A DNA stretch of 64,000 nt from a virus (taxonomy: Duplodnaviria > Heunggongvirae > Uroviricota > Caudoviricetes): IMG/VR virus record IMGVR_UViG_3300032167_002916. One strand, given 5' to 3'. Numbering within the stretch: position 1 is the stretch's first letter; each line of letters begins with the position of its first letter. The notes beneath the pieces were generated by a model that saw only the letters and a list, made by a program, of their open reading frames with translations, had not been told where the DNA came from and searched no databases. Below are positions 7,564 through 60,854 of this stretch, piece after piece. Position numbers and translations under genes: made by a program.

Positions 7564-10500
7564 TTATTCTTGCCATGTCAGTGAAACGCCACCATCTTCG
7601 CGTGGGGAGAAGAAGAAGTTGCCTAGAATAAGGGTGTTCTCAATCACGGCATTGGGAATATGTAATTGATTGTTGTCCACATAAGAAACGATTATGTCTT
7701 CCTGTTTGAAATACAAGCCTGTATTATCAATAACAGTTTTGAATTTGCTGGAAGTAGCGCCGAGGGTTAATCCATCATCATTGAATGTCATATATTGACC
7801 GACCTCAGCTTTATGTGCAGCAAGCTGGTCATTGACATCGGATATTATTGCAGCATACTTTTTGTCAATTTCACTGGAAGCTGAGTTAATCTGATCTGTA
7901 ACCGAGGAGTTGATACCTGCGATTTTATCGTCAATCGTTGTGTTGATTTTTTCAGACTCAGACTGGATAGCATCATACAAATTGTTTGTGTTGTTTGTTA
8001 TAGACGCATTTAAGTCGTCAGTAGTTGTCTTGAACTGCTCTCTCAAAGCAGCGATATCATCAGCTACATCGTCAGTAAATACCGTCCATTCATAATCGTC
8101 AAAGACTTCCGAATCTTCTGTGTTAGTGTCGATATACGTACCAATGTATAGACCAATTTCAGCTCCGGTCTCGACGTTTGCATCTCTCATGTCTGGAATT
8201 ACTTCTTCGTTTTCAAAATAGGAAACGAAAGAATCGTATGTGTCCGTTCCGCCAGTTCCCTGAAGCATCACTCTAAAGTAATAGATACCATCCGGCACTT
8301 CGATTGTCAGATTGGAGGACAATTCAGAACTTCTGACATAGTTACCATCAACGTCATATTGTTTTATGTAAACCTTGATGCTATCATTGTTGGAAGTAGC
8401 CACATATTGAGTGCCAGGTACAACTGGGATAGCATCCACATAAGTAATGTAGTGCGTGTATCCGTCAACAACAACGCCTGTGTCAATCGTATCTCTTGAA
8501 GGGGCAACACCGCTAACCCATTTATCGATATTCGTCGATAATGCGTTTCCAGTAAATGTCAGGCAATCGTCAGAGTACTTGATGTGCAGATACTGCGGTC
8601 CGACACCGCCGCCAGACGCCAGATCTTCTAGGTTCGTAGAATCACCGGAACTGGTATAAATACTGATAGTACCGTTAAGTACGAGGTTGCCGTTGTCGTC
8701 AATATACAACTGCTTGGAGTAATACTCATTACCAGAATCATCTAACAGCTTCTTCTGAATTGTGAATACCATCCGGCTCGGGTCGTTGGACGTGTAATCG
8801 GAAGTCAGCGTAAAACCATTATTGTCCAGCGTAATACTGTTGTTCGTGTTATAGATACCAACTTCTTCAGACAAGACCATACTGCCAATAAGGGTATCGG
8901 CAATCACACCATAGCGCTCTTCGACCTCACCTGTGAATGGGTTGTTAAACAGGAAGCTGCCAATGGCAGTGCTTGCGGTCTCCCAGCCATCGTCAGTGAA
9001 AACAATGGTCTGGTTGGTGATCTTGATTTGCTTCGGGCCGTACTCTCCGTTTTCCAGTAAAGTGCGTCCCAGAATGCCAGTATCGTCGATGATGATCTCC
9101 TGATTTGCGGAAGCAAGTGCAGCATTTTTGGTCAGAATACCAGAAGACTCAATTGCTTCCTTCATCATGTCAAATTCGCCATCCTTGACAGGGTAGAGAA
9201 TCTCCTTGATGTAGTTGATGGAGTTCGTGGATTTCTTGATATCGCCAAGTACGCCATTAAAAATGGCCTTCGGGTCGAATCGGCTAAAGCGATTTCCGAA
9301 GGTCATCTGCAAAGACTTGTCCGCATAGTTAACGGTTATATTCGATAAGAAGAGCAAGGCCACATCGTCGACTTCAAGCTCCACGTTGATTAAACAGCCA
9401 GTCTCAAGCTGTTCGCTCCATTCTTCGAACTCCTTCGCAAACAGGAAGTTCTCAACATCCATTGAGAACTCTTGCGTAGGTTCGGAGACACGACTCAGTC
9501 TTGTAACAGCCCGGTCATATAGAGTCTTCATCTGCTGGAACTTTTCTGAGTAGGTCATTATACTGGTAACAGAAATGTACTCGTCAGTATAACTTCCCTC
9601 ATAAATGTAATTGCTTAATTCATTGTACTCAGCTTCTGTGAAGTAGGAGGTAATAGCAACACTTTCATGAATTGCCACAATTGAATCAAGTAGTCCAGAG
9701 ACTTCTGCAGCAGCATCGTCGAGGTCTGCTTTCGCCTGTGCCAGGTCATTCTTAGCATTTGCGATCAAAGTATCAATCTCTGCAAGAGTGTCTGCCAGTT
9801 CGTTCTGAACGCCAACAGGAACACCACCATTTTCTTCGATCACTTTGTTATAACTTGGCACAGTAGCTGTCGAACCATTGGCGACAATGTTATCCCGGCA
9901 ACGCTGGTACATTTCAATCTGAATGTTTATTCTGTCAATTTCAGAATTCAAATCAGACTGTGAGGTCAGATTCTCGTAATAAGCAAGATTGAGGTCATAA
10001 TACTCAGATTCTTTGGAAGCAACCAGCTCCTGCCATGCGACCACTTTCTCACGAAGGGAGTCTGTCATCCAGTCCAGATAGTAGTCAAAGTTGTAGATCA
10101 CATTTGTGCCGATTGGGTTGACAGGGGAGATGTTCAGATTTTCATCGCCCTGAACGTTAAGCGCAGTATACAAATCCTCAGACCCCTCGGAGATCGTGAG
10201 TGTGTTAATCACGTCAGCCTTGGTGATATGGATTTGTGTCTCTGCAAAATAGTTGTTCTGATCGTAGACATCGATCCTACGATTGATCGTGTCAAAGTGG
10301 AAGATACACTCATAAGCATCCTGCATGTTCTCTTGTAGAAATGCCAGGGCGTTCAGTTCGGTGCTTACGCCTTCAAAGGTTCTATACTTCTTTGCGACAT
10401 CGCCATTGACCTCACCAATAGTCCACATCGGCAAAACTGCGACAATCTTTTCTAGCAGATCTGTAAACAGGTACGTTCCGTCTTCAATGTAAGGAACAAG

Positions 10501-11770: not shown

Positions 11771-14700
11771 TTATTTGTTCAAGCGTGTAAACTGCTTGAG
11801 GATATAGTCGATACCTTCACGTTGTGCTCTGCGGATCTCAGACACGGTCTGCTGATCGGCATTGCCCTGAATGATGATATCTCCAGTCGATAGCTGAATC
11901 GGCTGGGATTGTCTGCCAATGCTGGTCAGGTTCACTGCATTCAGCAAACTAGCAAACATATTAGACAGTGCGTTTCCTCTGTCCATAGCAAAGTCGTACA
12001 GGAATTTAGTAGCTTCTGTATTCAGAACCATTTCGCCACCAGAGAAGACACGGTACTTCGTGCCATCGCCAGAAGTGAACAGCCATTCTGCGCCCTTCTC
12101 ATCGACCTTCTTGACACCCGGCGCAGCACTACGAGTACCGGTCGCGTATCCCTCGGAAGAAGATGAACCAGGGGAGGCCACAAGGATGATGTCCTTATAT
12201 GCTCTTCCGAAAGTATCCAGGAAGTCATCCAGAGATGCCTTTGCTTCATCCCACATGGTCTTGACTGTCTCTGCGTTTCCGTCTCCGTACTTAGCGTTAT
12301 ACTCGACCATTTCAAGATACAATGCTTGAGTGTTGTTCTGAATATCCCGCAAAGCTTGGTTATACAGAGCCTCTGGATCGTTCAGCTGTGCTTCAATTGC
12401 TTCAATCTCTGCATCGATCTGAGCGGCCTGCTTCTCATAGATAGCATCCAACAGGTTCTGAGTGTTGTCCAGAGCCTGTTCCTTTTCAAAGTCGTCAAGA
12501 TCCTTTTGTGCAACAGAAAGTTCTTCCTGCAGTTCCAGCTTGCGCTTTTGCGCCCAAGCGGAATCATCAAACTTCAACTGGTCAAGCTCAGCTTCAATGT
12601 CAGTCTTAGCCTTACGCTTTTCATTTCTCTCTTCGAGAGTCTTTTCATCATCGTAAGCCCGCTGCAGTAAATCCTTCTGCTCGTCGTAGAAGTCCTTCAG
12701 TGCATCCTTTTTATCTTCCAGAGCATCCCGTTCATTCTCAAGATCCTGCTTTAGCATCTTGATACGATATTCAATCAGGTCTTCAACTGCGCCCTTCGCA
12801 TCATCGGTTGCGTCCTCACGGATGTCCGCAATCTCGTCTTCGTAGTCACGCTGTTGCTCTAAAAGCTCCTGAATATACTCATCGTTTTCGTCGAGACCTC
12901 TGGCTCTTGCTAGAGCAATTTCTGTCTTGATATCCTTTATCATGCCAAGGTACAGATTGATAATCTGACCCTCGGTTCCATCAAGACGCTCCAAACCAGC
13001 AATCTTAAACTCAAGATCGTTCAGATAATCTTGGAATAACTCTTTGCGGCCTTCATATACTTCTTCTTCGTACTTGTAATAGTCTTCGAGTTCGATTTCA
13101 CCATTACGGTACGCATCTTGGTATGCCTCTTCTAGCCAACGAAGATAATGCTCAAGATCCTCCTGCTCCATTGCAAGCAGGTGCTGATGATATTTGTATG
13201 CCTCTTCAAACGCATTCTTAGCATCTTCGGCAATATCGGATTCAGAATTGTTATTCTGATTATTGTGGTAGTTACCAGAACCTCCGTAGTTGCCGCCAGA
13301 ACTGCCATTTCCGTTGCCCCACATTCCAGTAATCGGAACAGAGCCAGAGACCATTGCAGTACCGGATACCATGGCATCTCCACGTCCAGCAACATAGCCG
13401 TATTTCAGCAGAGATTCACTCTGCTTGTGGTTAAAGATAATCGCATTCTTAGGGATGTCTACAAATTCAGCGCCCGTATCACCGACGGTATACCATCTAC
13501 CAGTATGCGGATCAACTACAATTTCTGTTCCTAGTTCACCAACTAGAGTTTCACCGCCAGGGGCGGTTCCCCAGTCACCACTTGCTCGCGCAGTACCAGT
13601 TAGATGCGCAGTGCCATTTACACCTTGGCTGCCTCCGTTACTCCAGTTCACAGTACCAGATGCAGTGAAATGAGTTCTTACGTTTGAAGTGTTATTTCCC
13701 CAATTGACTACACCTTGGGCGTACTTTGTAGCCGTTGAATAAGCATCAACTTCACTAGTATCATTTCCCCAAGTAACAGTACCTTCAGCGTCATGCTCGG
13801 CCTGTTGGAAGCCTATAACAGCACTTTCATCTACACCGGCCTTAACAATTACCTCTGCATCTAATGCGGCGATAGATTCCGAAATAGTTTGAATAGAAGT
13901 GGTATCAATCTGCAAAGCCATTGCAACATTCGGGTCTAACTCTTGAATTGCACTGGCTACAGATGCTAACTCCGCTTCTGCTGATGAGGTATCAATATCC
14001 AGAGCCTTGCTCATTTCAATCTGGCCTTGCAGAGAAATGAACTCCTGCATCAATGTAATAGCATTTCCTAGAGCACCCTCGACAACAGATGTATCAACCT
14101 TCATTACATCAGGAGCAGTCAATAGTTGCTTTTGAGCTAAACAATACTCGATAATCTGGTTAGCATATTCAATCTCAGACGAATCAACACCAGGCTTTAC
14201 CTTCAGATTCTGCATTTCTTCGATTGTTGCCTTAAGAGCATCAATCTTTTCGTCTTTATTCTCGATATCGCTAACATCAATGTTAAGCTTTAGAGTCTCA
14301 TTTCCTTCTATACCACGAAGTGCCTCAGCCGCTTCTGTAGCGGTAACAGCCAGATCGCCAATAGTCTTATTTGCTTCGTCAGCCCAGTCAAACTCTGCAC
14401 CGAACTCTTGCAACTCACCAAACATCGCTTGGACAAGCGGTAAGGATAGTTCAAGACCGTTGGCAAAATCTTCCATGGTTTTGCCGCCAGCAATTTCATA
14501 AGCAGTTCCGGCCTCATTAAGAACCATTAAGCCGGCATCAACAGCTTGCTGACAGAAATTCGCAATGTTCAATCCGGTACGATTTCCGTCGGAATCGTAG
14601 GTGAACATATCGCTTATACTTTCAAGATACGAATTAACAGCGGCAGTGTCTTCTGCGTCTACAGTATCTGGAATGATAAAGTCGATTGCTGCCTGGTAGT

Positions 14701-17289: not shown

Positions 17290-17683
17290 TCTATCTAATA
17301 ACTCTGACAACCACACAGACTGCGTTGATTGACATTTTCTCTGATTGGGATTATAATACTCATTGACCTGACGACCCAGACCGTCGTCGAGGCAAGACTT
17401 CAAAAAGGAGGCCAGTTATGTTAGGTAAACTTTTGAACTTGCCTGTCTCTGAGGTAACACCAATGCGAGGGCAAGGCGAATAATTTCGTGCCTGCGGAAC
17501 CCACCCGCTAAAGTGCGGTTGCCTTGAGTAAGAAAGGATAGACGCATCCCATCCGATGATAGTGCGGTAGCAAAGTGCGCACGTCCTGCTAAGGAATAAA
17601 AGGAGAAAGGGTCGACAGGGTAGCAACTGAAGACCGCCAAACACTATCGTTGCTGCAAGGTTCAGAGAAAACAAATATGGGCG

Positions 17684-17724
17684 AAGAACTGCTGAGAAGA
17701 TGCGCTCGGCAGTTCTTTTGTTTA
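17684..17724 (+). terminator. Intrinsic terminator (GAAGAACTGCTGAG / CTCGGCAGTTCTT stem plus T-run)
   Basis: 13-bp stem followed by TTTTGTTT. Confidence 0.55.
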
Positions 17725-34542: not shown

Positions 34543-35571
34543 TTACATATCTGCAAGTCCTTTCTTTTCAGGTACGGCGATGTCTCCATTCGCAAAATAC
34601 ATACCAATCTGTTCGTCGGTATCAATATCCGTATAGAGCCGCACCATATCACTGGACTCCCAGGCAACGATACTTTGGATAACACCGTCTGGTATACCTG
34701 CTCTCGCGAGACTTGTAGTAAAGTAATGTCGCAAACTGTGAGTATAGAAATCTTTTCCGGTCAATCTAGAAAAAGTCTTTGCCCAACTATTAACCGTAGG
34801 AATTCCGATATGCTCTTCTGGGTCTGAATTAGAGGGAAATAACCATTCACTCGTAATGCCTAGTTCTTCTCGCTGCTTACACCACAAATCAAAATACGGT
34901 CTAAACTTTTTAGCTAATGTGTAGCACGGTATATACTTTCCGCCGCCCCGACCCTTTGTCTTGATTGGAGAACTCTTATATAGAGCTCCATCGCAAACGA
35001 GCTTATCCTCAGAAAAATCAGAGACCTTAAATCTGCATAGCTCAGACTTACGGCGTCCACTATACATTGCGAGAGCAAGGAAGCACGCTTTTTCGTAATG
35101 CTTCATGTCCACTAATATGGCGAGTAAATCTTCAAGTTCTTCGTCTTCCCACACCGTTTTCTCGCGGACAACTTGTAGTGTGGGGTTCTCTATTTTTCTT
35201 ACGATAGAACGGAATCCTTTGAACTCAGGTTCTTCGTCTAAAATAGCTTCAACAAAATTACTTAGCGAGGAAATAGCAGACTTAAGTCTACGCACACGTG
35301 AAGAGCTATTTTGGTTCTCGTTTAGAAGCCAATTCTGATATGCAACCAAATCTCTTTTGGTAATTTCCACGAATGGCTTATTGCGAGCATTATGCAATAC
35401 CCACACAAAGAAGATATCAAGATCATTGCTATATCCAGAAATTGTTCCTGGACTTCTCTGGATCGATTTCAAATAATCCAGAAAATCGTTTTTTAACCTG
35501 ATATTTTCTGGGTTTATCTGTGCAACAAGCTCGGGGCTTGTAATCGAATTCATTTTTGTTTTTCGTGACAT
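34543..35571 (-). CDS. int: Tyrosine integrase
   Basis: Arg box GRRKSELCRFKVSDF, HSLRHYFTT (HxxR) and a C-terminal LY motif. Start trimmed to MSRKTK so that it does not overlap tRNA-Asn. Confidence 0.75.
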   Translation of the reverse strand: MSRKTKMNSITSPELVAQINPENIRLKNDFLDYLKSIQRSPGTISGYSNDLDIFFVWVLHNARNKPFVEITKRDLVAYQNWLLNENQNSSSRVRRLKSAISSLSNFVEAILDEEPEFKGFRSIVRKIENPTLQVVREKTVWEDEELEDLLAILVDMKHYEKACFLALAMYSGRRKSELCRFKVSDFSEDKLVCDGALYKSSPIKTKGRGGGKYIPCYTLAKKFRPYFDLWCKQREELGITSEWLFPSNSDPEEHIGIPTVNSWAKTFSRLTGKDFYTHSLRHYFTTSLARAGIPDGVIQSIVAWESSDMVRLYTDIDTDEQIGMYFANGDIAVPEKKGLADM

Positions 35572-36103: not shown

Positions 36104-36183
36104 ATGGTAGCGAGATGTGGGAGTCGAACCCACTCCTCAGGGCTTATGAGGCCCGCGACTTAACCGCTTGTCCTATCCGCCAT
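36104..36183 (-). tRNA. tRNA-Met/Ile2-like (CAT anticodon) with imperfect acceptor pairing
   Basis: T-arm GTGGG-TTCGACT-CCCAC and anticodon loop CTCATAA are clear; the acceptor and D stems pair poorly by hand-folding. Confidence 0.5.
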
Positions 36184-36343: not shown

Positions 36344-36428
36344 TGGTGGGTCAGGTTGGACTCGAACCAACGTAGGTAAAACCGGTGGATTTACAGTCCA
36401 CTGCCATTGCCACTAGGCGACTGACCCA
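36344..36428 (-). tRNA. tRNA-Tyr(GTA), type II with a long variable arm
   Basis: Anticodon loop CTGTAAA; long variable arm; T-loop GGTTCGAGTCC; encoded CCA. Confidence 0.85.
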
Positions 36429-38044: not shown

Positions 38045-38815
38045 TTATATTGCAGCCGAAATATCGCGATTCATAACTGAATTCACCTTATTCTTGACAC
38101 GTATTTCTGTTGCACAACAGTTGCAGTATTTTTGCTTTCTGCCAACGCCAGGGTTATTTCTCTTTGTAGTGATGCCACAATGAGAGCAAACAAAATAAGG
38201 TTCTCCGTATTGCTTCATATATTGATATCCAATATTGCGGAAGTCGATGATATTCATCACCGGTTCATCGGTATCAGCAAATAACACACGAACACTCAGG
38301 TTATCAATTTGTTTGGAAAACTGGATAAGGCCATTATCTCTCAACTGTCTGAAAAGCGCACACTGCCGATGCACAGAGGCACTTATATTAGCCATACGAA
38401 GAATTTCGTTATCCGGTGTGTTTACCCAGTAATTGGTATTTGGGTCAACTGCATAATTGTATTTTGCTATGCATAGCAGGGTGAAGGCAAGCCTCCGTGC
38501 CTGCTTACCTTCTATCTTTTCAATTCTGCGCAACTCATTTCCGGTAATGGAAATGCTGTCAATAATAACGAGCGGACGCTTAAACGCTACTTTAATAATA
38601 CCGTCCAACGGCTCTGACCATTTATGTATTGGAAATGACGGATCGCAGCTTAAAATAAATGCCTCCACATTATTCCTGACTTCTTTCTTTGAGAGTCCTT
38701 TATGAGCGTAATACTTTGAAACCATCATAATAGTTTCATATGGCTTCTTGCCAAGCATCTTTTCACGGATTGCATTCTCTGCCCACACGAGCTCATTCAA
38801 AACAATACTCATCAT
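38045..38815 (-). CDS. Hypothetical replication-module protein with a C-terminal Cys4 zinc finger (256 aa)
   Basis: CSHCG...CNCC motif; overlaps the stop of the 888-aa gene. Confidence 0.4.
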   Translation of the reverse strand: MMSIVLNELVWAENAIREKMLGKKPYETIMMVSKYYAHKGLSKKEVRNNVEAFILSCDPSFPIHKWSEPLDGIIKVAFKRPLVIIDSISITGNELRRIEKIEGKQARRLAFTLLCIAKYNYAVDPNTNYWVNTPDNEILRMANISASVHRQCALFRQLRDNGLIQFSKQIDNLSVRVLFADTDEPVMNIIDFRNIGYQYMKQYGEPYFVCSHCGITTKRNNPGVGRKQKYCNCCATEIRVKNKVNSVMNRDISAAI

Positions 38816-41459
38816 TATCCTCCATGTTAACTTTTATTTCTTTGAATCTCCTTCCCTGGTAGAGTATGTCTCCATCATCGGCACACACCGGAACAGAAAC
38901 TGTGCCCCCATTCTTTGATAGCAGATTATTTACGATGTCTGCACCACAAATGTCCCACGCAAACTTCTTCGACGCACTTCGTTTGTAACATAGATCCAGC
39001 ACGATATTACATAGGGTCGACCTGTTCTGGCAAACTGCTTCACACTCTCTAACAAATTCATCACGCATACAAGAGATCGTTGTTTTGGACTCAGCAACAT
39101 CCACTCGTTCATAGTATGTGTAAACAAGATAGCGTTGGAGTTTGTGGTTATATTCCTCATATAGCTTACGGATAGAGGACATCTGTGAATATGTATATTC
39201 TGCGTCAGATTTCATTATTGAATAATCAAAATCTGTGACCTTATTAAATTTACCGATGTAGCCATCGAACTCTTCTTCAAATCTCCAACAGATCTTATTC
39301 ATTACGCATGGATTGGTTCCGGCAGGAAGTCGGGATTTATAATAACGCAGGAAGTCGAGCTGGCGCTCAGTAAGTTCACAGTGTGGCATTGCATCAAGTT
39401 CATCAACGGTAAGGCCAAACTCTCTGATGGCGTTCCTATCTGTGTTCTTCTTATAAGTGCTATACTGTTTCATCAACGCCGGATATATATAACACATGAA
39501 ATACGGCTTGCGGTCAGCGACGATACTCCTGTAGTAACGCTTCATATCTGTATTCTCTATCAGATTGACGGAGTGCCGGTCGTGCCATTCTCTCGGCATG
39601 GGCTTTGCGATAATGCCTTTAGCCTTGTCGATTGCGTTCTGCTGGAATAGCTGACCACACTTAATACGATAGGCAAGATCCGAATATTCTTGGGAACTCT
39701 TAGGAAATTTAGATTGAACTTCGAACATAGAGGTAATCCAATTAGTAGTTTTTCCGATATCATTGCCGAAGCTCTCAATATTAGATTTGATGAAATCCTC
39801 TTCGCATACAACCTTTTTTGTAGCTCTACGCTGAGCGCACATTAGTGCAGGCAGTTCGACTAATTTGTCGACAAGAACTTCATTGTCGGTTAACATAACT
39901 AAATCTCCATCAAAGTCCATACCGTTCAGCGCAGAAGCTGCAGTGTCCCAACCGTTAAAGATTGTACATGTTGTCATATACTGAAACCAATACTTTGCCT
40001 CGTCAGAAGTACATGGATGAACCGCTCTTATATTCGCATGGCATGTCATAGGCGCTCTGAAACAGGCAAGCTTCTCAGCTCCGTAATCTCCCCAATACCT
40101 ATTGTAGATTTCACCGGCTTTAAGCAATCCAGTCTTCTCCTGTCCAAACACGCTTTGACATAGGAGGTAGGGATCGCCAGATACTATGGAATAATTGCCG
40201 TGGACTTTTAGTACGCCAACCTTTGCTTCGTTGATTCTGTTTCTAATCAACTGATATATGCTACTCCGCACATATGGATCGTCTACCATCTTTGGGTTAA
40301 CCAGTATAGCCTTGAGATAACTGTCTTCCAGTCGTTCAATATTATCTGCACGAAGACTATCGCCCTTTAGAAACAAAACTGTCTTATGCCAATCGCCGCC
40401 TAGTACCTCTTTAATCTCATTCATCGTGGGTGTAATTAGGCGTTCAATGTCGTCGTCGTCCAAATCATAGCTCTGGATGAACTGGTAGTTGAGGCAGCGT
40501 TCTCGTTCCAACTCCTTTGGGCACGTCTTTGCTACACTGAAGGTATAACCATTATCCATACAGCACTGGATGTAGTGGTCGCAACTTTCGTAGCTGTCCC
40601 AAAGCTTGACCATAGATGTGGTCAGCATCAGATCAACATCTCGGATGTCAACCTCATTTCCCCAGGCGTCTTTGATTATATAAGTTCCGGCGACTTTCTC
40701 GGCATAATCGTGGAAATCAAATGTGAAAACCATTCCTTTTTCAAAGGAAAAGCGAGTGTTCACACCACTTACCAAGTAGTCCAATCCAAGATCTTTACTC
40801 CATTGCTCAGCCAAAGAGGGGAGCATCAGCCCATATCCGTCAGATGCATTCATCCGGATCGGCACCTGTTTCCGTTCCTCCATTACAGGTTCACCATCAG
40901 CTTCATCTGTTAAGTAGACAATATCAGACAAGAACTCTGTTTCGCAATCATCAACAACGACAATGCCCTTCGGGAACGATACTGGAGTTGATGCGCTGCA
41001 TGTCAGAGCTTTGTATGCTTCAAGCTTTGCCGGAACCAATTTCTTTTCCAGGTCACGTCCATTATCAATTCGACGACGAAGTTCATCAGCGTGACGTTCA
41101 CTCACAAAAACAATCGTGCTATTCTTAATTCCGCCATTTGTACCGAGCAGCCGCTTATAGTTGATACCATTGATGCTGAATCCTTTACAGGCTCTGTAGT
41201 AATCTTTCTCTTTATCAATAATCAAACACATATAGTCTGGCTTAAATTGGATGCTGTCCAGCTGAGCATAGAGCTGCTTTACGGCACGTCTGTTCTGAAC
41301 GGTGTTTGCTTCTTTGCGAAGCCGTTTAATCTCCTGCTTAATTTCTTTTGCCTTACTCTCAGCGTCCGTAATGCCGTTCAATTCATCAAGCCATCTTAAG
41401 ACTTGGCTATCGGCGAGGGAAATCACTTCATCGTTTCGCCTGGCCTCGGCGATGCCCAA
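38793..41459 (-). CDS. 888-aa protein carrying a DFDGD motif; candidate YonO-like single-subunit (two-barrel) RNA polymerase
   Basis: NGMDFDGDLVML is near-identical to the Mg-binding loop NADFDGDQMAVH of the multisubunit RNA polymerase beta-prime subunit; size is similar to YonO-type enzymes. No search was run. Confidence 0.5.
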   Translation of the reverse strand: MGIAEARRNDEVISLADSQVLRWLDELNGITDAESKAKEIKQEIKRLRKEANTVQNRRAVKQLYAQLDSIQFKPDYMCLIIDKEKDYYRACKGFSINGINYKRLLGTNGGIKNSTIVFVSERHADELRRRIDNGRDLEKKLVPAKLEAYKALTCSASTPVSFPKGIVVVDDCETEFLSDIVYLTDEADGEPVMEERKQVPIRMNASDGYGLMLPSLAEQWSKDLGLDYLVSGVNTRFSFEKGMVFTFDFHDYAEKVAGTYIIKDAWGNEVDIRDVDLMLTTSMVKLWDSYESCDHYIQCCMDNGYTFSVAKTCPKELERERCLNYQFIQSYDLDDDDIERLITPTMNEIKEVLGGDWHKTVLFLKGDSLRADNIERLEDSYLKAILVNPKMVDDPYVRSSIYQLIRNRINEAKVGVLKVHGNYSIVSGDPYLLCQSVFGQEKTGLLKAGEIYNRYWGDYGAEKLACFRAPMTCHANIRAVHPCTSDEAKYWFQYMTTCTIFNGWDTAASALNGMDFDGDLVMLTDNEVLVDKLVELPALMCAQRRATKKVVCEEDFIKSNIESFGNDIGKTTNWITSMFEVQSKFPKSSQEYSDLAYRIKCGQLFQQNAIDKAKGIIAKPMPREWHDRHSVNLIENTDMKRYYRSIVADRKPYFMCYIYPALMKQYSTYKKNTDRNAIREFGLTVDELDAMPHCELTERQLDFLRYYKSRLPAGTNPCVMNKICWRFEEEFDGYIGKFNKVTDFDYSIMKSDAEYTYSQMSSIRKLYEEYNHKLQRYLVYTYYERVDVAESKTTISCMRDEFVRECEAVCQNRSTLCNIVLDLCYKRSASKKFAWDICGADIVNNLLSKNGGTVSVPVCADDGDILYQGRRFKEIKVNMEDNDEYCFE

Positions 41460-43209: not shown

Positions 43210-44034
43210 TTATCCGGCAGAAATATCCATCTCAATGACATTACCATCAATCAAATAATTGCAAGTAGTACTACCCAGATTAAGACTCCGATAAGCTTCT
43301 TCAATCTCTTCGCCGGTAATACCAATATAATCCAAAGTCTGAGCTGCACTGGAATGACCCATCATCTTTTGCAGCAGAAGAAGCTTTCGTGGGTCGTTAT
43401 GGCTCATAAGCATCTGATGGTAAGCGAAGGTCTTTCTCAGAGTATGAGTAGACATATGAATGTTCATATCCATGTCGGCAGCAATACCCTTCAGGATCAT
43501 ATCAATTGCTTTACGAGAAATAGGAGTGTTATTTGCCTTGCTATTGTTGGATGCACTTCTAAACATGTAGTCGCTCAGAGATACATTAGGAGTATTCTCC
43601 AAATAGAGAATAACAGCATCTTGGACCGCAGTATTGATTGTGATGTAGCGATTACGCTTATGCTTACGGGTGTTACGAGTCTTCTGCTCGAAAATAGGGA
43701 AGCTGTCTCTGAACATCTGGACACCGTTATTGCTAACAATCAGATTGGAGAACCGGAGCATCCGGAGATCGCTAACTCTGAGTCCAAAGTTAATGCCTAC
43801 GATAAAGAGCATGTTGTCTCTGAACCTCTTATTCGCAATAAGGTATTTAGAAACTCTAATGATATCGTCCATGCTCTTAATTGGTTCAGAGGTATGTTCC
43901 GGTGCAAGAACGCTTGACGTATCCTCAGTAGCAGGAGCAATCAAGCCGGCCTGCAGCCTACGTGTATTCTGTTGGATGGATGCTACGTTGATAGCGTTAT
44001 TTCTCTTCTCAAGATCAAGAACGATAATACTCAT
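43210..44034 (-). CDS. Second, small tyrosine recombinase (XerD-like, about 274 aa)
   Basis: GLRVSDLRML, HTLRKTFAYH and MMGHSS...LDYIG motifs. Confidence 0.7.
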   Translation of the reverse strand: MSIIVLDLEKRNNAINVASIQQNTRRLQAGLIAPATEDTSSVLAPEHTSEPIKSMDDIIRVSKYLIANKRFRDNMLFIVGINFGLRVSDLRMLRFSNLIVSNNGVQMFRDSFPIFEQKTRNTRKHKRNRYITINTAVQDAVILYLENTPNVSLSDYMFRSASNNSKANNTPISRKAIDMILKGIAADMDMNIHMSTHTLRKTFAYHQMLMSHNDPRKLLLLQKMMGHSSAAQTLDYIGITGEEIEEAYRSLNLGSTTCNYLIDGNVIEMDISAG

Positions 44035-48635: not shown

Positions 48636-48732
48636 GCTAACCATCGCCCGGCCTTTCATACATATTGTTTTGAAAGGGTGATGGGTTTGACTTTAACTTG
48701 GGTTTATGCTATCATTATTCAGGGTGATAGCT

Positions 48733-49638
48733 ATGTATAATCCTGAGATAAAAGAGCGGTTTTTGAATGAAAATGCTAATGCAAAATTTATCTTGTCTAT
48801 GTGCGCAAGGTACGAAGAATCGATAGGCAAGGATATTTCTCAGATGAATAAGCATGAGGCAAACTTGGTTTTGCAGTCGGCTGATTTGTGTGAGCTAAGT
48901 ACAATAGAAGGAATGTTGTCGGTTGGTAGCACTTATACAAAATGGTGTAAGGACAATAATTTGCTACCTGATATCAGTGATGGGTTTACGTCTATTGATG
49001 TCAAGGACATCGATCCTTCTGCGGTAATGGCAAAAATGTTTTTCCGTGATGAAGAAGACTTTATTCGCTCAATGCGCAAAGTTCGTGAATTTGATGAAGG
49101 CTATCCGGAGATAATTGGATTAGTTTTTGTATGGCTTGGATTGGGTTATAATGAAGCAACTACGTTAAAAGATACTTGTGTGGATCTTAAAGCGAGAGTT
49201 ATTTATGATAATGATGGTAATGTTTTGATCCATAGTTTCTCAGATGGAATCCATAGTATCTTTGAGCAATTTGTAAGATGTACGAACGGGAATCGTGGCG
49301 CATACAATGTTGTAAAAGATAGATCCTTGGATTTATTCTTGAAACGTATGTGTTCGCCGTCTTCGCCAAAAATGGGAACACCTATTTTGCCAAGGCAACT
49401 TACAAATGCAGTCAATAGGATGAACTTCCAGTACGAGGAGCTGGGGTATCCGCCTAGGTTCTCTATGTTGAACGTAAAAAGATCTGGTTCTTTATATCGG
49501 TTATGGTTAGCCGAACAAAATGGACTTGATGTAAGTGACAAAAATAATCGTGAGGAAGTGGAACGGGTTTATTGCGGTAAGAAATACCGCAATATTATCT
49601 GGCAATATAAGTATTACAAAAAGGCTTTCAATCTGTAA
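48733..49638 (+). CDS. Hypothetical (301 aa)
   Basis: Long clean ORF starting MYNPEIKERF. Confidence 0.5.
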   Translation: MYNPEIKERFLNENANAKFILSMCARYEESIGKDISQMNKHEANLVLQSADLCELSTIEGMLSVGSTYTKWCKDNNLLPDISDGFTSIDVKDIDPSAVMAKMFFRDEEDFIRSMRKVREFDEGYPEIIGLVFVWLGLGYNEATTLKDTCVDLKARVIYDNDGNVLIHSFSDGIHSIFEQFVRCTNGNRGAYNVVKDRSLDLFLKRMCSPSSPKMGTPILPRQLTNAVNRMNFQYEELGYPPRFSMLNVKRSGSLYRLWLAEQNGLDVSDKNNREEVERVYCGKKYRNIIWQYKYYKKAFNL

Positions 49639-59525: not shown

Positions 59526-59554
59526 GAGTATAAAAGTGTGTTTTGGTGGTGAAT

Positions 59555-59905
59555 ATGAAGTACTTAAAAGCGTACAGCCCACGTTGCGTAGGGTTTGATC
59601 CATCTTCGCTATATTACGCATTCTTCGACGAGGTGTTACATCCAGAAACCAAGCGTCGTGTAGATTCAATCCCGAAAGATGAACCTATGTTCACCCTTGA
59701 AGAAGATGGTTCTCAAAATTGGATTGCAGTATATGATGACTGGTCGTTTGCGATTGATCTCGATACGGGAAATGAATACTCTTATCCGACAATAACGCAA
59801 ATCCGTAAGGACATTGCTATACGAGGATGTCTTGCAGTTTGCTATAACCATCCTTTAATCGAGGTTACTTTTGACGATTTTGGTAAGAAAATCTATATGA
59901 AATGA
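59555..59905 (+). CDS. Hypothetical (116 aa)
   Basis: Trimmed to MKYLKAY. Confidence 0.4.
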   Translation: MKYLKAYSPRCVGFDPSSLYYAFFDEVLHPETKRRVDSIPKDEPMFTLEEDGSQNWIAVYDDWSFAIDLDTGNEYSYPTITQIRKDIAIRGCLAVCYNHPLIEVTFDDFGKKIYMK

Positions 59906-59924
59906 AAGCGTGTTTGATAAATAT

Positions 59925-60030
59925 GAAGCGGTACGTAAGCGGCTAAACGGCGGGCTGTAAACCCGTGTGTTGTACAGTATCCTAGGTAGTTAAACACCCC
60001 GATAGGTTCGACTCCTATCCCGCTTCACCA
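59925..60030 (+). tRNA. Atypical type-II tRNA-Tyr-like (GTA anticodon) with a 35-nt variable arm, 106 nt
   Basis: Acceptor GAAGCGG/CCGCTTC; D-stem CGT/ACG with a Tyr-like D-loop AAGCGGCTAA; anticodon stem GCGGG/CCCGT with loop CTGTAAA; T-arm ATAGG-TTCGACT-CCTAT; A-CCA end. There is one extra C before the 3' acceptor strand. Confidence 0.45.
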
Positions 60031-60305
60031 CGGGCGCTGCCTTTGAGACTCCAGCCTGAAAAGTCCCACGGTAGTAAGTGGCAGCACAATACCGGGGCAG
60101 TTATAGGCACCGTCATGAGAGATCATGCGCGGCGGATTACGCAACGCGTAAGCGAGACCGATTCTAAATCGGTACAACTGCTTGTATAGCATAACTAATG
60201 CGACTGCTAATACCAGGATTATGGTGGGTAAAATCCCCCTGCAAGCGCCAATGCAGCCGGACGACGGCAGGTTTCCCCGGGGTTGATCGCCCGGGGATTT
60301 CTTTA
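60031..60305 (+). ncRNA. About 270-nt structured non-coding stretch ending in a GC-rich hairpin terminator (60275-60305)
   Basis: No ORF; many local stems; CCCCGGG(G)/CCCGGGG hairpin followed by a T-rich run. Confidence 0.35.
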
Positions 60306-60337
60306 TAAAAGTTCGATTTGGTAAGGTGATTTTTCAT

Positions 60338-60772
60338 ATGACAGAACAAGAATTCAAAGCAAAATATGACGAGTTCATTTCTACCTTTACGAGCCCTGGG
60401 TCTAACCTCGCTGAAGCAATGTTTTTTGATGTTTCAAAGATGTGGAATGAGTGCAGGAATGATGAATACGAAGAACCTGTCGAGGAAGTGTTCGAGAGAT
60501 ATCTCTGTATTCTTGTTACCGCTAGAAGGCCATGGTTATTTACAGGTTTTGTAAACCATGAAAAGCTTACACGAAAAGACTTCACAAGCCTTGATGCATG
60601 GGCTAGATATAAAACCGAATGGGAGAGCAAAGACGAAAAATGTGCTGCGCTTATGAGAAAATTGCAAAAAGCGCACGATGATTACAGCAATAGCCATAGA
60701 TTTTGGTCCTGTATGTTCATCCTGCTGTGGGGCTTCACTCTGCTCGCGATTCATTCGATTATCAAAGTTTAA
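60338..60772 (+). CDS. Hypothetical with a C-terminal transmembrane helix (144 aa)
   Basis: Trimmed to MTEQEF; GGTAAGGTGA SD. Confidence 0.45.
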   Translation: MTEQEFKAKYDEFISTFTSPGSNLAEAMFFDVSKMWNECRNDEYEEPVEEVFERYLCILVTARRPWLFTGFVNHEKLTRKDFTSLDAWARYKTEWESKDEKCAALMRKLQKAHDDYSNSHRFWSCMFILLWGFTLLAIHSIIKV

Positions 60773-60775
60773 TTT

Positions 60776-60854
60776 GGGAGGATGGCGGAATGGTAGACGC
60801 TAAGGGACGCCGAGGATAACTTCCGTGTAGGTTCAAATCCTACTTCTCCCACCA
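60776..60854 (+). other. tRNA-like element with a Leu/Ser-type D-arm, canonical T-arm and A-CCA end but no foldable anticodon arm
   Basis: Acceptor GGGAGGA/TTCTCCC; D-arm TGGCGGAATGGTAGACGC; T-arm GTAGG-TTCAAAT-CCTAC. No placement of a 5-bp stem with a 7-nt loop pairs in the intervening 25 nt. Confidence 0.45.

Follow-up and report, generated by a model that had tools for sequence, protein, structure and literature searches.

The variable region of E. coli tRNA-Tyr is about 13-14 nt long, and in phage T4 and murine gammaherpesvirus 68 small RNAs that are linked to tRNAs are released via tRNA processing. Work from 2024-2026 has shown that Septu and Retron-Eco7 defend against phages by cutting tRNA-Tyr in its variable loop, to disabling effect. 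PtuA-PtuB of Septu and of Retron-Eco7 cleave this loop at U47/C48 (PMC12673091, PMC13096335, PMC11555353), and T5-like phages escape with a slightly longer one: the tRNA-Tyr of the T5-like phage SP15, whose loop exceeds the E. coli one by 5 nt, is not cut, and swapping the E. coli loop into it abolishes counter-defence (PMC12673091, PMC13096335). In addition, over-expression of tRNA-Tyr, whichever its origin, neutralises the toxicity of PtuA-PtuB (PMC12673091), and engineered tRNAs that carry hairpin aptamers on the tip of the variable arm still translate (PMC7590224).

The locus described here lies in a 64,000-nt stretch of DNA from a virus of the Caudoviricetes (the window, which is the whole stretch analysed). 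Its first part is a tRNA-like gene with the following features.

59925-60030, + strand: tRNA-Tyr(GUA)-like gene with a giant variable arm and an encoded CCA, 106 nt (by sequence, minimum-energy cloverleaf, 59.7 bits with model R1, and covariation)
59925-59931 with 60020-60026, + strand: acceptor stem GAAGCGG/CCGCTTC, followed by A73 at 60027 and CCA at 60028-60030
59955-59961, + strand: anticodon loop CTGTAAA, with GTA at 59957-59959, invariant in all eight members of the family described below
59967-60001, + strand: variable region of 35 nt, in which GTGTT/AACAC forms the outer stem and an inner hairpin displays the palindrome CCTAGG (59981-59986)
60019, + strand: an extra C after the T stem and before the 3' strand of the acceptor, placed by the model alignment and able to pair with G60001

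The acceptor, D arm, anticodon loop, T arm, 35-nt variable region and extra nucleotide read exactly as the original prediction had given them. The D arm is CGT-AAGCGGCTAA-ACG with a Tyr-type loop (U8 and A9 are present), the anticodon arm is GCGGG-CTGTAAA-CCCGT, and the T arm of the window copy is ATAGG-TTCGACT-CCTAT. The cloverleaf of a canonical tRNA is complete, with four arms, a 7-bp acceptor, a 5-bp anticodon stem, a 7-nt loop, U33 and a purine at 37. The canonical tertiary nucleotides U8, A14, G18-G19, G53-T54-Psi55-C56, A58 and C61 are also present; they are read as the T at 59932, the GG in AAGCGGCTAA and the T loop TTCGACT, and their columns are invariant in alignment A1. The identity elements of bacterial tRNA-Tyr are there as well, namely the anticodon GUA, A73 as discriminator and a long variable arm of class II. 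The acceptor branch does not have the canonical 12 bp (7/5); rather, the pair G60001-C60019 gives the window copy a 6-bp T stem and a branch of 13 bp (7/6).

Standard tools pass over this gene. ARAGORN makes no tRNA call at 59925-60030, Rfam at gathering score (29 bits for the tRNA model RF00005) reports nothing there, and in E-value mode tRNA-Sec is the best Rfam match and the only one shown for the clan, with 31.1 bits where its gathering score is 47; this match arises because of the 13-bp acceptor branch. The minimum-energy fold is the cloverleaf, with an energy that by itself is not significant (z = -1.38). Taken alone, therefore, the window sequence would leave the element ambiguous; that it exceeds chance is seen from the comparative evidence of its relatives, not from fold energy. 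In IMG/VR the exact T-arm and acceptor pattern has no match, and the 37 matches to the anticodon-arm 18-mer share that arm only.

Relatives were sought as a Tyr-type D loop, CTGTAAA and a T loop with an over-long variable region between them. The pattern scan gave one relative in IMG/VR (L055), and metagenomes gave L064, L079, L092, L108 and L132, the last of which is identical to L055 and was not counted as distinct; L211 and L245 came from look-ups of neighbour genes and a final motif scan. The family comprises eight distinct sequences (the window, L055, L064, L079, L092, L108, L211 and L245) on different uncultivated phage contigs. Common to all eight are a CUGUAAA anticodon loop, an encoded ACCA, an AAG(C/U)GG D loop and a variable region of 35-40 nt, and the tRNA features conserved across the family are U8, A14, G18-G19, U33, GUA, A37, the TTCGA T loop and A73-CCA. 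Nucleotide 26 is absent in every member, pair 1-72 is A-U in three of seven aligned members, and the acceptor branch is 7/5 in six of the eight, L108 having, like the window, one inserted T-stem nucleotide. A search of GenBank phages with a family member returned ordinary tRNA fragments only, and none of 74 pattern matches in 185,579 species-representative genomes is a family member.

A covariance model, R1, was built from L055, L064, L079 and L092 only, leaving out the window and L108. It scores L108 at 109 bits and the window copy at 59.7 bits (E about 1e-12), which is the top match in the window; the ordinary tRNA-Tyr at 36344-36427 gets 50.7 bits. The relatives are more easily recognised as tRNAs, since L064 (34.6 bits), L055 (33.7), L092 (32.3) and L079 (29.4) pass the 29-bit Rfam threshold. 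Alignment A4 comprises seven members, all but L245, which was found later. In it, 96.4% of cells are paired, two-sided changes occur in 19 of 28 pairs and all stems show compensatory changes, counts that flatter the structure, as the alignment was fitted to the model, although the effect is large nonetheless. None of 500 shuffles matches it, and slid alignments are only 35-56% paired. Even the close pair L055 and L211 shows a swap between G-C and U-A in the anticodon stem. Taken together, these comparisons show that 59925-60030 is a real, conserved Tyr-type tRNA-like gene and not a chance fold. The over-long variable arm that had been predicted for it is thus borne out by the R1 score and by covariation in the relatives; the covariance-model check that had been proposed fails with Rfam at gathering score, as does ARAGORN, and succeeds with the relatives-built R1. 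By its sequence the window copy is the most divergent known member of what is so far a small family from uncultivated phages.

The variable arm is itself part of this pattern, and both of its helices (4 and 5) covary in A4. The outer 4-bp stem (helix 4) has two-sided changes at all four pairs, appearing as UCCG/CGGA, GCGC/GCGC, GCAC/GUGC and ACUU/AAGU, with GUGUU/AACAC in the window; versions of the inner stem are GAC/GUC, GUC/GGC and AAC/GUU, and the inner arm of the window copy is unlike that of the other seven members. In all eight a 6-nt palindrome lies at the same place in the middle of the variable-arm loop: CCUAGG in the window, GUGCAC in L055 and L211, GGCGCC in L064, L079 and L245, GCGCGC in L092, and GUCGAC in L108. 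These are five different palindromes, and all changes between them are symmetric (position 2 with 5, 3 with 4), none asymmetric. Intramolecular pairing cannot explain the palindrome, because neighbouring nucleotides of a single strand are unable to pair and the flanking sequences are non-complementary, and a sequence-specific protein site at the hexamer was rejected since such a site would not drift by symmetric changes. The simplest reading, and the most likely one, is that the loops of two giant-arm tRNA copies would pair with each other. A literature search found no description of such a tRNA, nor of tRNA-tRNA dimerisation for any natural tRNA.

Downstream of the tRNA-like gene lies a second unit, which consists of the following parts.

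60034-60179, + strand: segment A, a structured non-coding RNA conserved in L211 only (96.6%, by BLAST), with no Rfam match
60180-60250, + strand: tRNA-like C, a degenerate tRNA-shaped element that scores 25.7 bits with RF00005, below the gathering score of 29; its sequence gives an acceptor GCTTGTA/TGCAAGC, a D arm GCAT-AACTA-ATGC, a 3-bp "anticodon" stem, a T arm GGTGGG-TAAAAT-CCCCC, and then G-CCA
60256-60268, + strand: a small hairpin, GCCG-GACGA-CGGC, kept with other sequence in L214 (GCCGG-TAC-GCCGGC)
60274-60305, + strand: an intrinsic terminator, TCCCCGGGG-TTGATCG-CCCGGGGA followed by TTTCTTT (the terminator scan gives 60274-60297 plus the T run)

This stretch had been predicted to be structured, untranslated, bounded by a hairpin terminator and part of one RNA with the tRNA. 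The terminator was recovered by the scan, and it is the 3' end of the conserved cassette, with homology to L211 and L214 stopping just after it. The stretch is also structured, in that it folds better than shuffles (z = -2.66), and it is non-coding, its open reading frames all being of 61 aa or less and broken by a 1-nt indel relative to L211. The view of the stretch as a single RNA tied to the tRNA found no support in comparison: L211 has an L055-type tRNA joined to a window-type cassette, with homology beginning at window position 60034, and L214 and L215 hold the 3' half of the cassette alone, that is, the tRNA-shaped element, the hairpin and the same terminator, with no segment A. Nor is there support for a 5' UTR specific to gene 60338, which had been named as grounds for refutation, since the same cassette lies before a different gene in L211 and in L214. 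The suggested kinship with large structured RNAs likewise found no support: between 59800 and 60900 no Rfam model for GOLLD, ROOL, HEARO, tmRNA, group I or any other large RNA matches at E <= 10. Across the window GOLLD, ROOL and HEARO have no match at gathering score, ARAGORN reports no tmRNA and RF00023 has no match, and in IMG/VR the segment A and tRNA-like C patterns have none.

The two halves of the cassette differ in how they have changed. Segment A differs from its L211 counterpart at five positions (3.4%), including one 1-nt indel, and two of the differences are compensatory, the pair G60112-C60130 being A-U in L211. From tRNA-like C through the terminator the window and L211 have 0 changes in 126 nt, and in the adjacent gene 12% of third codon positions differ; the 100% identity of this 3' half could reflect recent exchange rather than selection. 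The tRNA-shaped element of L214 and L215 keeps the D and T arms of the window, with two-sided changes at acceptor pairs 2 and 4 and a change of pair 7 from A-U to G-U. Its "anticodon" loop is unrelated to that of the window (CGAUAAG against CUAAUAC), and it has no CCA. A model of tRNA-like C (R2), run across 17 loci, has matches in the window, L040, L211, L214 and L215 only. These comparisons indicate that 60180-60250 is a conserved tRNA-shaped RNA, predicted to be unable to decode, and that 60034-60305 is a separate, exchangeable and composite cassette of no known RNA class, not one RNA. A long-range closing helix seen in the minimum-energy fold (GCGCTGC/GCAAGCGC) was rejected as a conserved pairing, because L214 and L215 keep its 3' strand as a compensated acceptor stem without segment A. 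Other candidates were also set aside: the hairpin ACCGA-UUCUAAA-UCGGU (about 60156-60172) has the CUA look of an amber suppressor, and no enclosing tRNA could be modelled around it; GAAAAGUCCCAC, a lookalike of the RNase P P4 region, has no RNase P model match; and AAAGTTCGATTT, considered as a repeated promoter, is not enriched within the window.

What follows the giant-arm tRNA varies from phage to phage. In L055 it is an unrelated RNA of ~165 nt, and in L079 and L245 an RNA of ~407 nt with covariation of its own (no pair is broken, 2 changes are compensatory and 12 affect one side yet preserve pairing), whose homology stops precisely where the closing helix does. Directly 3' of the tRNA, L064 and L092 have a gene; L108 has more tRNAs 3' of it and a normal tRNA-Tyr immediately 5'. 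L050, L051 and L213, which are close relatives, have another odd class-II tRNA in the same slot. Where a structured RNA follows (the window, L211, L055, L079 and L245, five of eight loci), it begins 1-4 nt past the CCA, and the three downstream RNA types have no alignable sequence in common. Because the tRNA and the downstream RNAs occur apart and in other combinations (L211, L214/L215, L055, L064, L092, L108), each is a module independent of the other, with recombination taking place at the CCA junction.

Among the gene products of the phage that carries this locus are tail proteins, three tyrosine-recombinase-like proteins, a terminase-like protein and a single-subunit RNA polymerase of the YonO type (PF05183). 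The phage is present in many metagenome assemblies, and 10 independent metagenome contigs are 100% identical across 59900-60340. Among GenBank phages the window DNA has no match, and neither does 59800-60400 in a distant-mode BLAST. A 682-aa DUF8224 protein that adjoins the locus is 62% identical to Bacillus phage proteins of the TsarBomba group, and there is no RNA at the equivalent site in TsarBomba and Emiliahah, the Bacillus phages that are the closest cultured relatives by this protein. PHROGs and Pfam give no hint of function for the neighbour genes, of which the 144-aa one has no relatives in IMG/VR. As had been predicted, an ordinary tRNA-Tyr(GTA) is found elsewhere in the window, at 36344-36427 (ARAGORN, Rfam); a degenerate tRNA lies at 60776-60854. 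Orphan structured RNAs are abundant in related phages (RAGATH-36, -4 and -16, twister-P1), and some contigs that bear giant-arm family members also carry FuFi-1, RAGATH and twister-P1 motifs, which are typical of gut Firmicutes phages.

The original prediction had proposed, with some reserve, a decoy or alternative tRNA that counters nucleases, and by analogy with the nucleases that cut the tRNA-Tyr variable loop this is the best available reading of its function. As in the T5/SP15 type, the phage has a tRNA-Tyr with a variable loop longer than that of the host, here 35-40 nt across the family. Because the decoding and charging elements are kept, the arm is rebuilt and a normal tRNA-Tyr lies alongside, either a resistant replacement or a decoy would fit. 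That 59925-60030 is a working tRNA-Tyr(GUA) variant replacing nuclease-cut host tRNA-Tyr we hold to be about equally likely to be right or wrong. Host TyrRS would charge the giant-arm tRNA, which would decode tyrosine once a PtuA-PtuB-type nuclease (Septu, Retron-Eco7) had cut ordinary tRNA-Tyr; the rebuilt, two-helix arm would remove or mask the cleavage site, as an extreme form of the longer loop that protects the tRNA-Tyr of T5-like phages. Two such molecules may pair via the self-complementary tip, most likely loop to loop. The cassette is probably co-transcribed with the tRNA, and tRNA-processing enzymes acting at both tRNA-shaped structures would free its RNAs. The giant-arm tRNA is an addition rather than the sole phage tRNA-Tyr, because the window and L108 each carry a normal one. 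The 13-bp acceptor branch of the window copy might impair use by EF-Tu or the ribosome, and the resistance model leaves the self-complementary loop unexplained. The absence of nucleotide 26 throughout the family, the A-U at 1-72 in three of seven aligned members and the deviating inner arm of the window copy also count against a working tRNA. We infer each of these steps, that is, transcription, processing, charging, nuclease resistance and dimerisation of the giant-arm tRNA.

These difficulties are smaller if the molecule does not translate. It could instead be a mimic of tRNA-Tyr, unused by the ribosome, that soaks up a defence protein targeting tRNA-Tyr or another tRNA-binding factor, with the dimerising arm as a trap. 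The same phage has a normal tRNA-Tyr, nucleotide 26 is absent in all members, the palindromic loop suggests a role in assembly apart from decoding, and PtuA-PtuB toxicity is neutralised by tRNA-Tyr over-expression (PMC12673091). However, the anticodon loop, A73-CCA and the tertiary nucleotides of the T and D loops are perfectly conserved, as is expected of a decoding tRNA, although a faithful mimic would retain them too. Such a decoy is unlikely but deserves weight, because a mimic that does not translate accounts more readily for the 13-bp branch of the window copy and for the dimerising tip. The close abutment of a conserved structured RNA 1-4 nt past the CCA at five of eight loci raises a further idea, that the tRNA-like gene serves mainly to recruit RNase P and 3' processing enzymes and so sets the 5' end of the downstream RNA. 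Yet in L064 and L092 the tRNA is followed at once by a gene and in L108 by further tRNAs, no sequence can be aligned among the three kinds of downstream RNA, and an invariant GUA loop and a covarying giant arm would be needless for a mere handle, which makes this role improbable.

The same modularity largely refutes a single ~380-nt RNA of the GOLLD/ROOL/HEARO kind with a tRNA-like 5' domain. The location in a phage beside tRNAs, the strong predicted structure and the wealth of orphan structured RNAs in related phages would suit it, but neither the region nor the relatives' downstream RNAs match any Rfam family at E <= 10, and with tRNA and downstream RNA found apart and in other combinations it is very improbable. 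It is just as hard to believe that the gene is a tRNA pseudogene in decay, that its variable arm holds inserted junk and that what follows is left over from a tRNA array. Tools that find tRNAs do miss 59925-60030, the slot is prone to recombination (other tRNAs lie there in L051 and L213), and tRNA-like C is degenerate, as is the tRNA at 60776-60854. Decay is nevertheless disfavoured by compensatory change in all stems, the inserted arm included, by the retention of the palindrome, by the identity of the locus in the 10 independent metagenome contigs, and by the cassette changing less than the third codon positions of the adjacent gene.

The preferred reading is thus that of a variant tRNA-Tyr that would replace the cut host molecule. 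A bolder and rather doubtful reading is that the giant-arm tRNA is naturally dimeric via its hexamer, that the dimer, charged or not, blocks or evades variable-loop nucleases, and that the RNAs abutting the CCA are accessory partners freed by tRNA processing. If the resistance reading is true, the tRNA-Tyr arms race reaches far past coliphages, to uncultivated phages, and has pushed tRNA architecture beyond the range of tRNA finders, so that such genes are systematically missed. If the family reading is true, large arms are kept by selection in nature, whatever the ribosome and TyrRS accept, and the family provides natural designs for tRNAs that bear functional variable-arm hairpins. A phage tRNA-Tyr is a known kind of molecule; what is new is a threefold longer, rebuilt variable arm with a covarying palindrome, a feature of the giant-arm tRNA that is unexplained and that makes tRNA-tRNA dimerisation a testable prediction.

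How the locus relates to known systems can be summarised as follows. The gene resembles a bacterial (Firmicute-type) class-II tRNA-Tyr(GUA) in its cloverleaf, its 3-bp D stem with a AAGCGGCUAA(A) loop, its CUGUAAA loop, its A73-CCA, its canonical T loop and its helical variable arm. Unlike that tRNA, it has a 35-40-nt two-helix variable region with a large loop and is missed by standard finders; nucleotide 26 is lacking, some members have A-U at 1-72, and the T stem of the window copy is 6 bp long. With tRNA-Sec and allo-tRNAs it shares a long variable arm, and the window copy also shares with tRNA-Sec, its best Rfam match, the 13-bp length of the acceptor branch, which is known elsewhere from tRNA-Sec. 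It differs from tRNA-Sec in having GUA instead of UCA, A73 instead of G73 and a 3-bp Tyr-type D stem instead of one of 6 bp, its branch is 7/6 rather than the 8/5, 9/4, 8/4 or 9/3 of tRNA-Sec and allo-tRNAs, and its 31.1 bits lie below the 47 of RF01852. The tip of the arm is like the HIV-1 DIS kissing loop, a purine-flanked, 6-nt self-complementary apical sequence that varies symmetrically between lineages, and the hexamers GCGCGC and GUGCAC are also the variants of the HIV-1 DIS; unlike the DIS, it sits on a tRNA variable arm in a loop of about 14 nt rather than 9, and its dimerisation is read from sequence only. The arrangement of a tRNA or tRNA-like unit abutting a structured RNA, presumably separated by tRNA-processing enzymes, is also that of the T4 species 1 and 2 RNAs and of the gammaherpesvirus TMERs, with which there is no sequence or model match and from which the family differs in having at least three unrelated, optional types of downstream module. 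Finally, the gene is like the counter-defence tRNA-Tyr of SP15 and T5, an extra phage tRNA-Tyr marked by a lengthened variable loop (PMC12673091, PMC13096335). In the T5 type that loop is 5 nt longer, whereas here, in another phage lineage with other presumed hosts, a putatively resistant tRNA has an arm ~20-25 nt longer, with a conserved architecture and a palindromic tip.

Short motifs recur at both edges of the RNA/tRNA slot, the position that holds the giant-arm tRNA-Tyr gene and its downstream cassette:
Window 59533-59544 and 59905-59916: near-palindrome AAAG(C/T)GTG(C/T)TTT
Window 60303-60320: ATAAAAGTTCGATTT

The near-palindrome, which may have a regulatory or promoter role, lies directly after stop codons ahead of the slot; the window has five copies where 0.8 would be expected. 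It is also found in L211, a giant-arm family member, in L051 and L213, close relatives with another tRNA in the slot, and in L214, which has only the 3' half of the cassette. ATAAAAGTTCGATTT is common to the 3' edge of the slot ahead of differing genes, being present also in L051, in L053 (another retrieved locus) and in the family member L055; no further copy was found elsewhere in the window. Base composition predicts ~12 copies of CCTAGG, the palindrome within the variable arm, in the window; there are three, including the one in the arm itself.

The reading of promoters in this phage is affected by one of the following genes:
Window 38793-41231, minus strand: 812-aa protein with a PF05183 match (RdRP fold)
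Window 34543-35571 (minus), 43210-44034 (minus) and 48706-49638 (plus): tyrosine-recombinase or MrpR-like genes

The PF05183 protein is of the YonO type, a single-subunit phage RNA polymerase; with such a polymerase, this phage's promoters may not be σ70-like, and the promoter scan is thereby limited. The recombinase/MrpR-like genes number three within a single 64-kb stretch.

Structured RNAs are present both in the window and in other giant-arm phages:
Window 17474-17718, plus strand: FuFi-1 match
L079 ~8640-9041, minus strand: structured RNA of ~407 nt
L245, ~410 nt downstream of the tRNA at 13512-13621, minus strand: the same RNA

The FuFi-1 match scores 59.6 bits, exactly the gathering score, and one of its hairpins holds a large insertion. 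The ~407-nt RNA, for which Rfam gives no match, begins directly 3' of the tRNA CCA and is closed by the helix GCCAUAC/GUAUGGC. Between its two copies, 2 changes are compensatory, 12 alter one side of a pair but preserve pairing, and no pair is broken. The motif GAAAAG(Y)CCCAC...GUGGC is common to this RNA and to segment A, the structured RNA at window 60034-60179. RAGATH-36, RAGATH-4 and RAGATH-16 are also present in the contigs of L079 and L064 (another family member), and a twister-P1 ribozyme scores close to threshold in L079.

A conserved element, AAAGCGGTTRCTRRACAAACTGTAAARTTGCC ... GGTTCGAATCC ... TTTAGA, was an accidental catch of the pattern scans. It recurs in Methanoregula chromosomes and in peat/wetland metagenomes (L157, L162, L173, L176, L189 and other Methanoregulaceae loci; L073, L074, L082 and others).

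Unusual tRNAs extend beyond the giant-arm gene:
Window 60776-60854, plus strand: aberrant tRNA, CCA encoded (41 bits, Rfam tRNA)
Window 36109-36180, minus strand: additional tRNA match (Rfam, 38.9 bits)
L051 1484-1570, L050 418-504 and L213 7625-7711: 87-nt class-II-shaped tRNA in the slot of close relatives
L079 9855-9944 (minus) and L064 8462-8552 (plus): odd long-arm tRNAs

ARAGORN calls neither of the two in the window. The first lacks a long variable arm; its D arm is Leu-like (GCGGAATGGTAGACGC), and its anticodon stem of just 3 bp carries a loop of 15 nt. The second adjoins the Asn/Asp/Phe/Glu/Tyr cluster. The 87-nt slot tRNA, which has the Ile anticodon GAU, A73 and a pyrimidine at 37, joins a long-arm body to an anticodon outside Leu, Ser and Tyr usage. 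Of the L079/L064 pair, one is a 90-nt "Asn GUU" lacking U33, and the other has a 4-base anticodon according to ARAGORN. Finally, a tRNA-like gene unrelated to the giant-arm family, found in three soil and rhizosphere metagenome loci (L085, L093, L109), combines the anticodon loop CUGUAAA with a D arm of the Ser/Leu type and G73; its variable region is ~45 nt long and its CCA is not encoded. It may be an independent example of a GUA tRNA with a giant arm.
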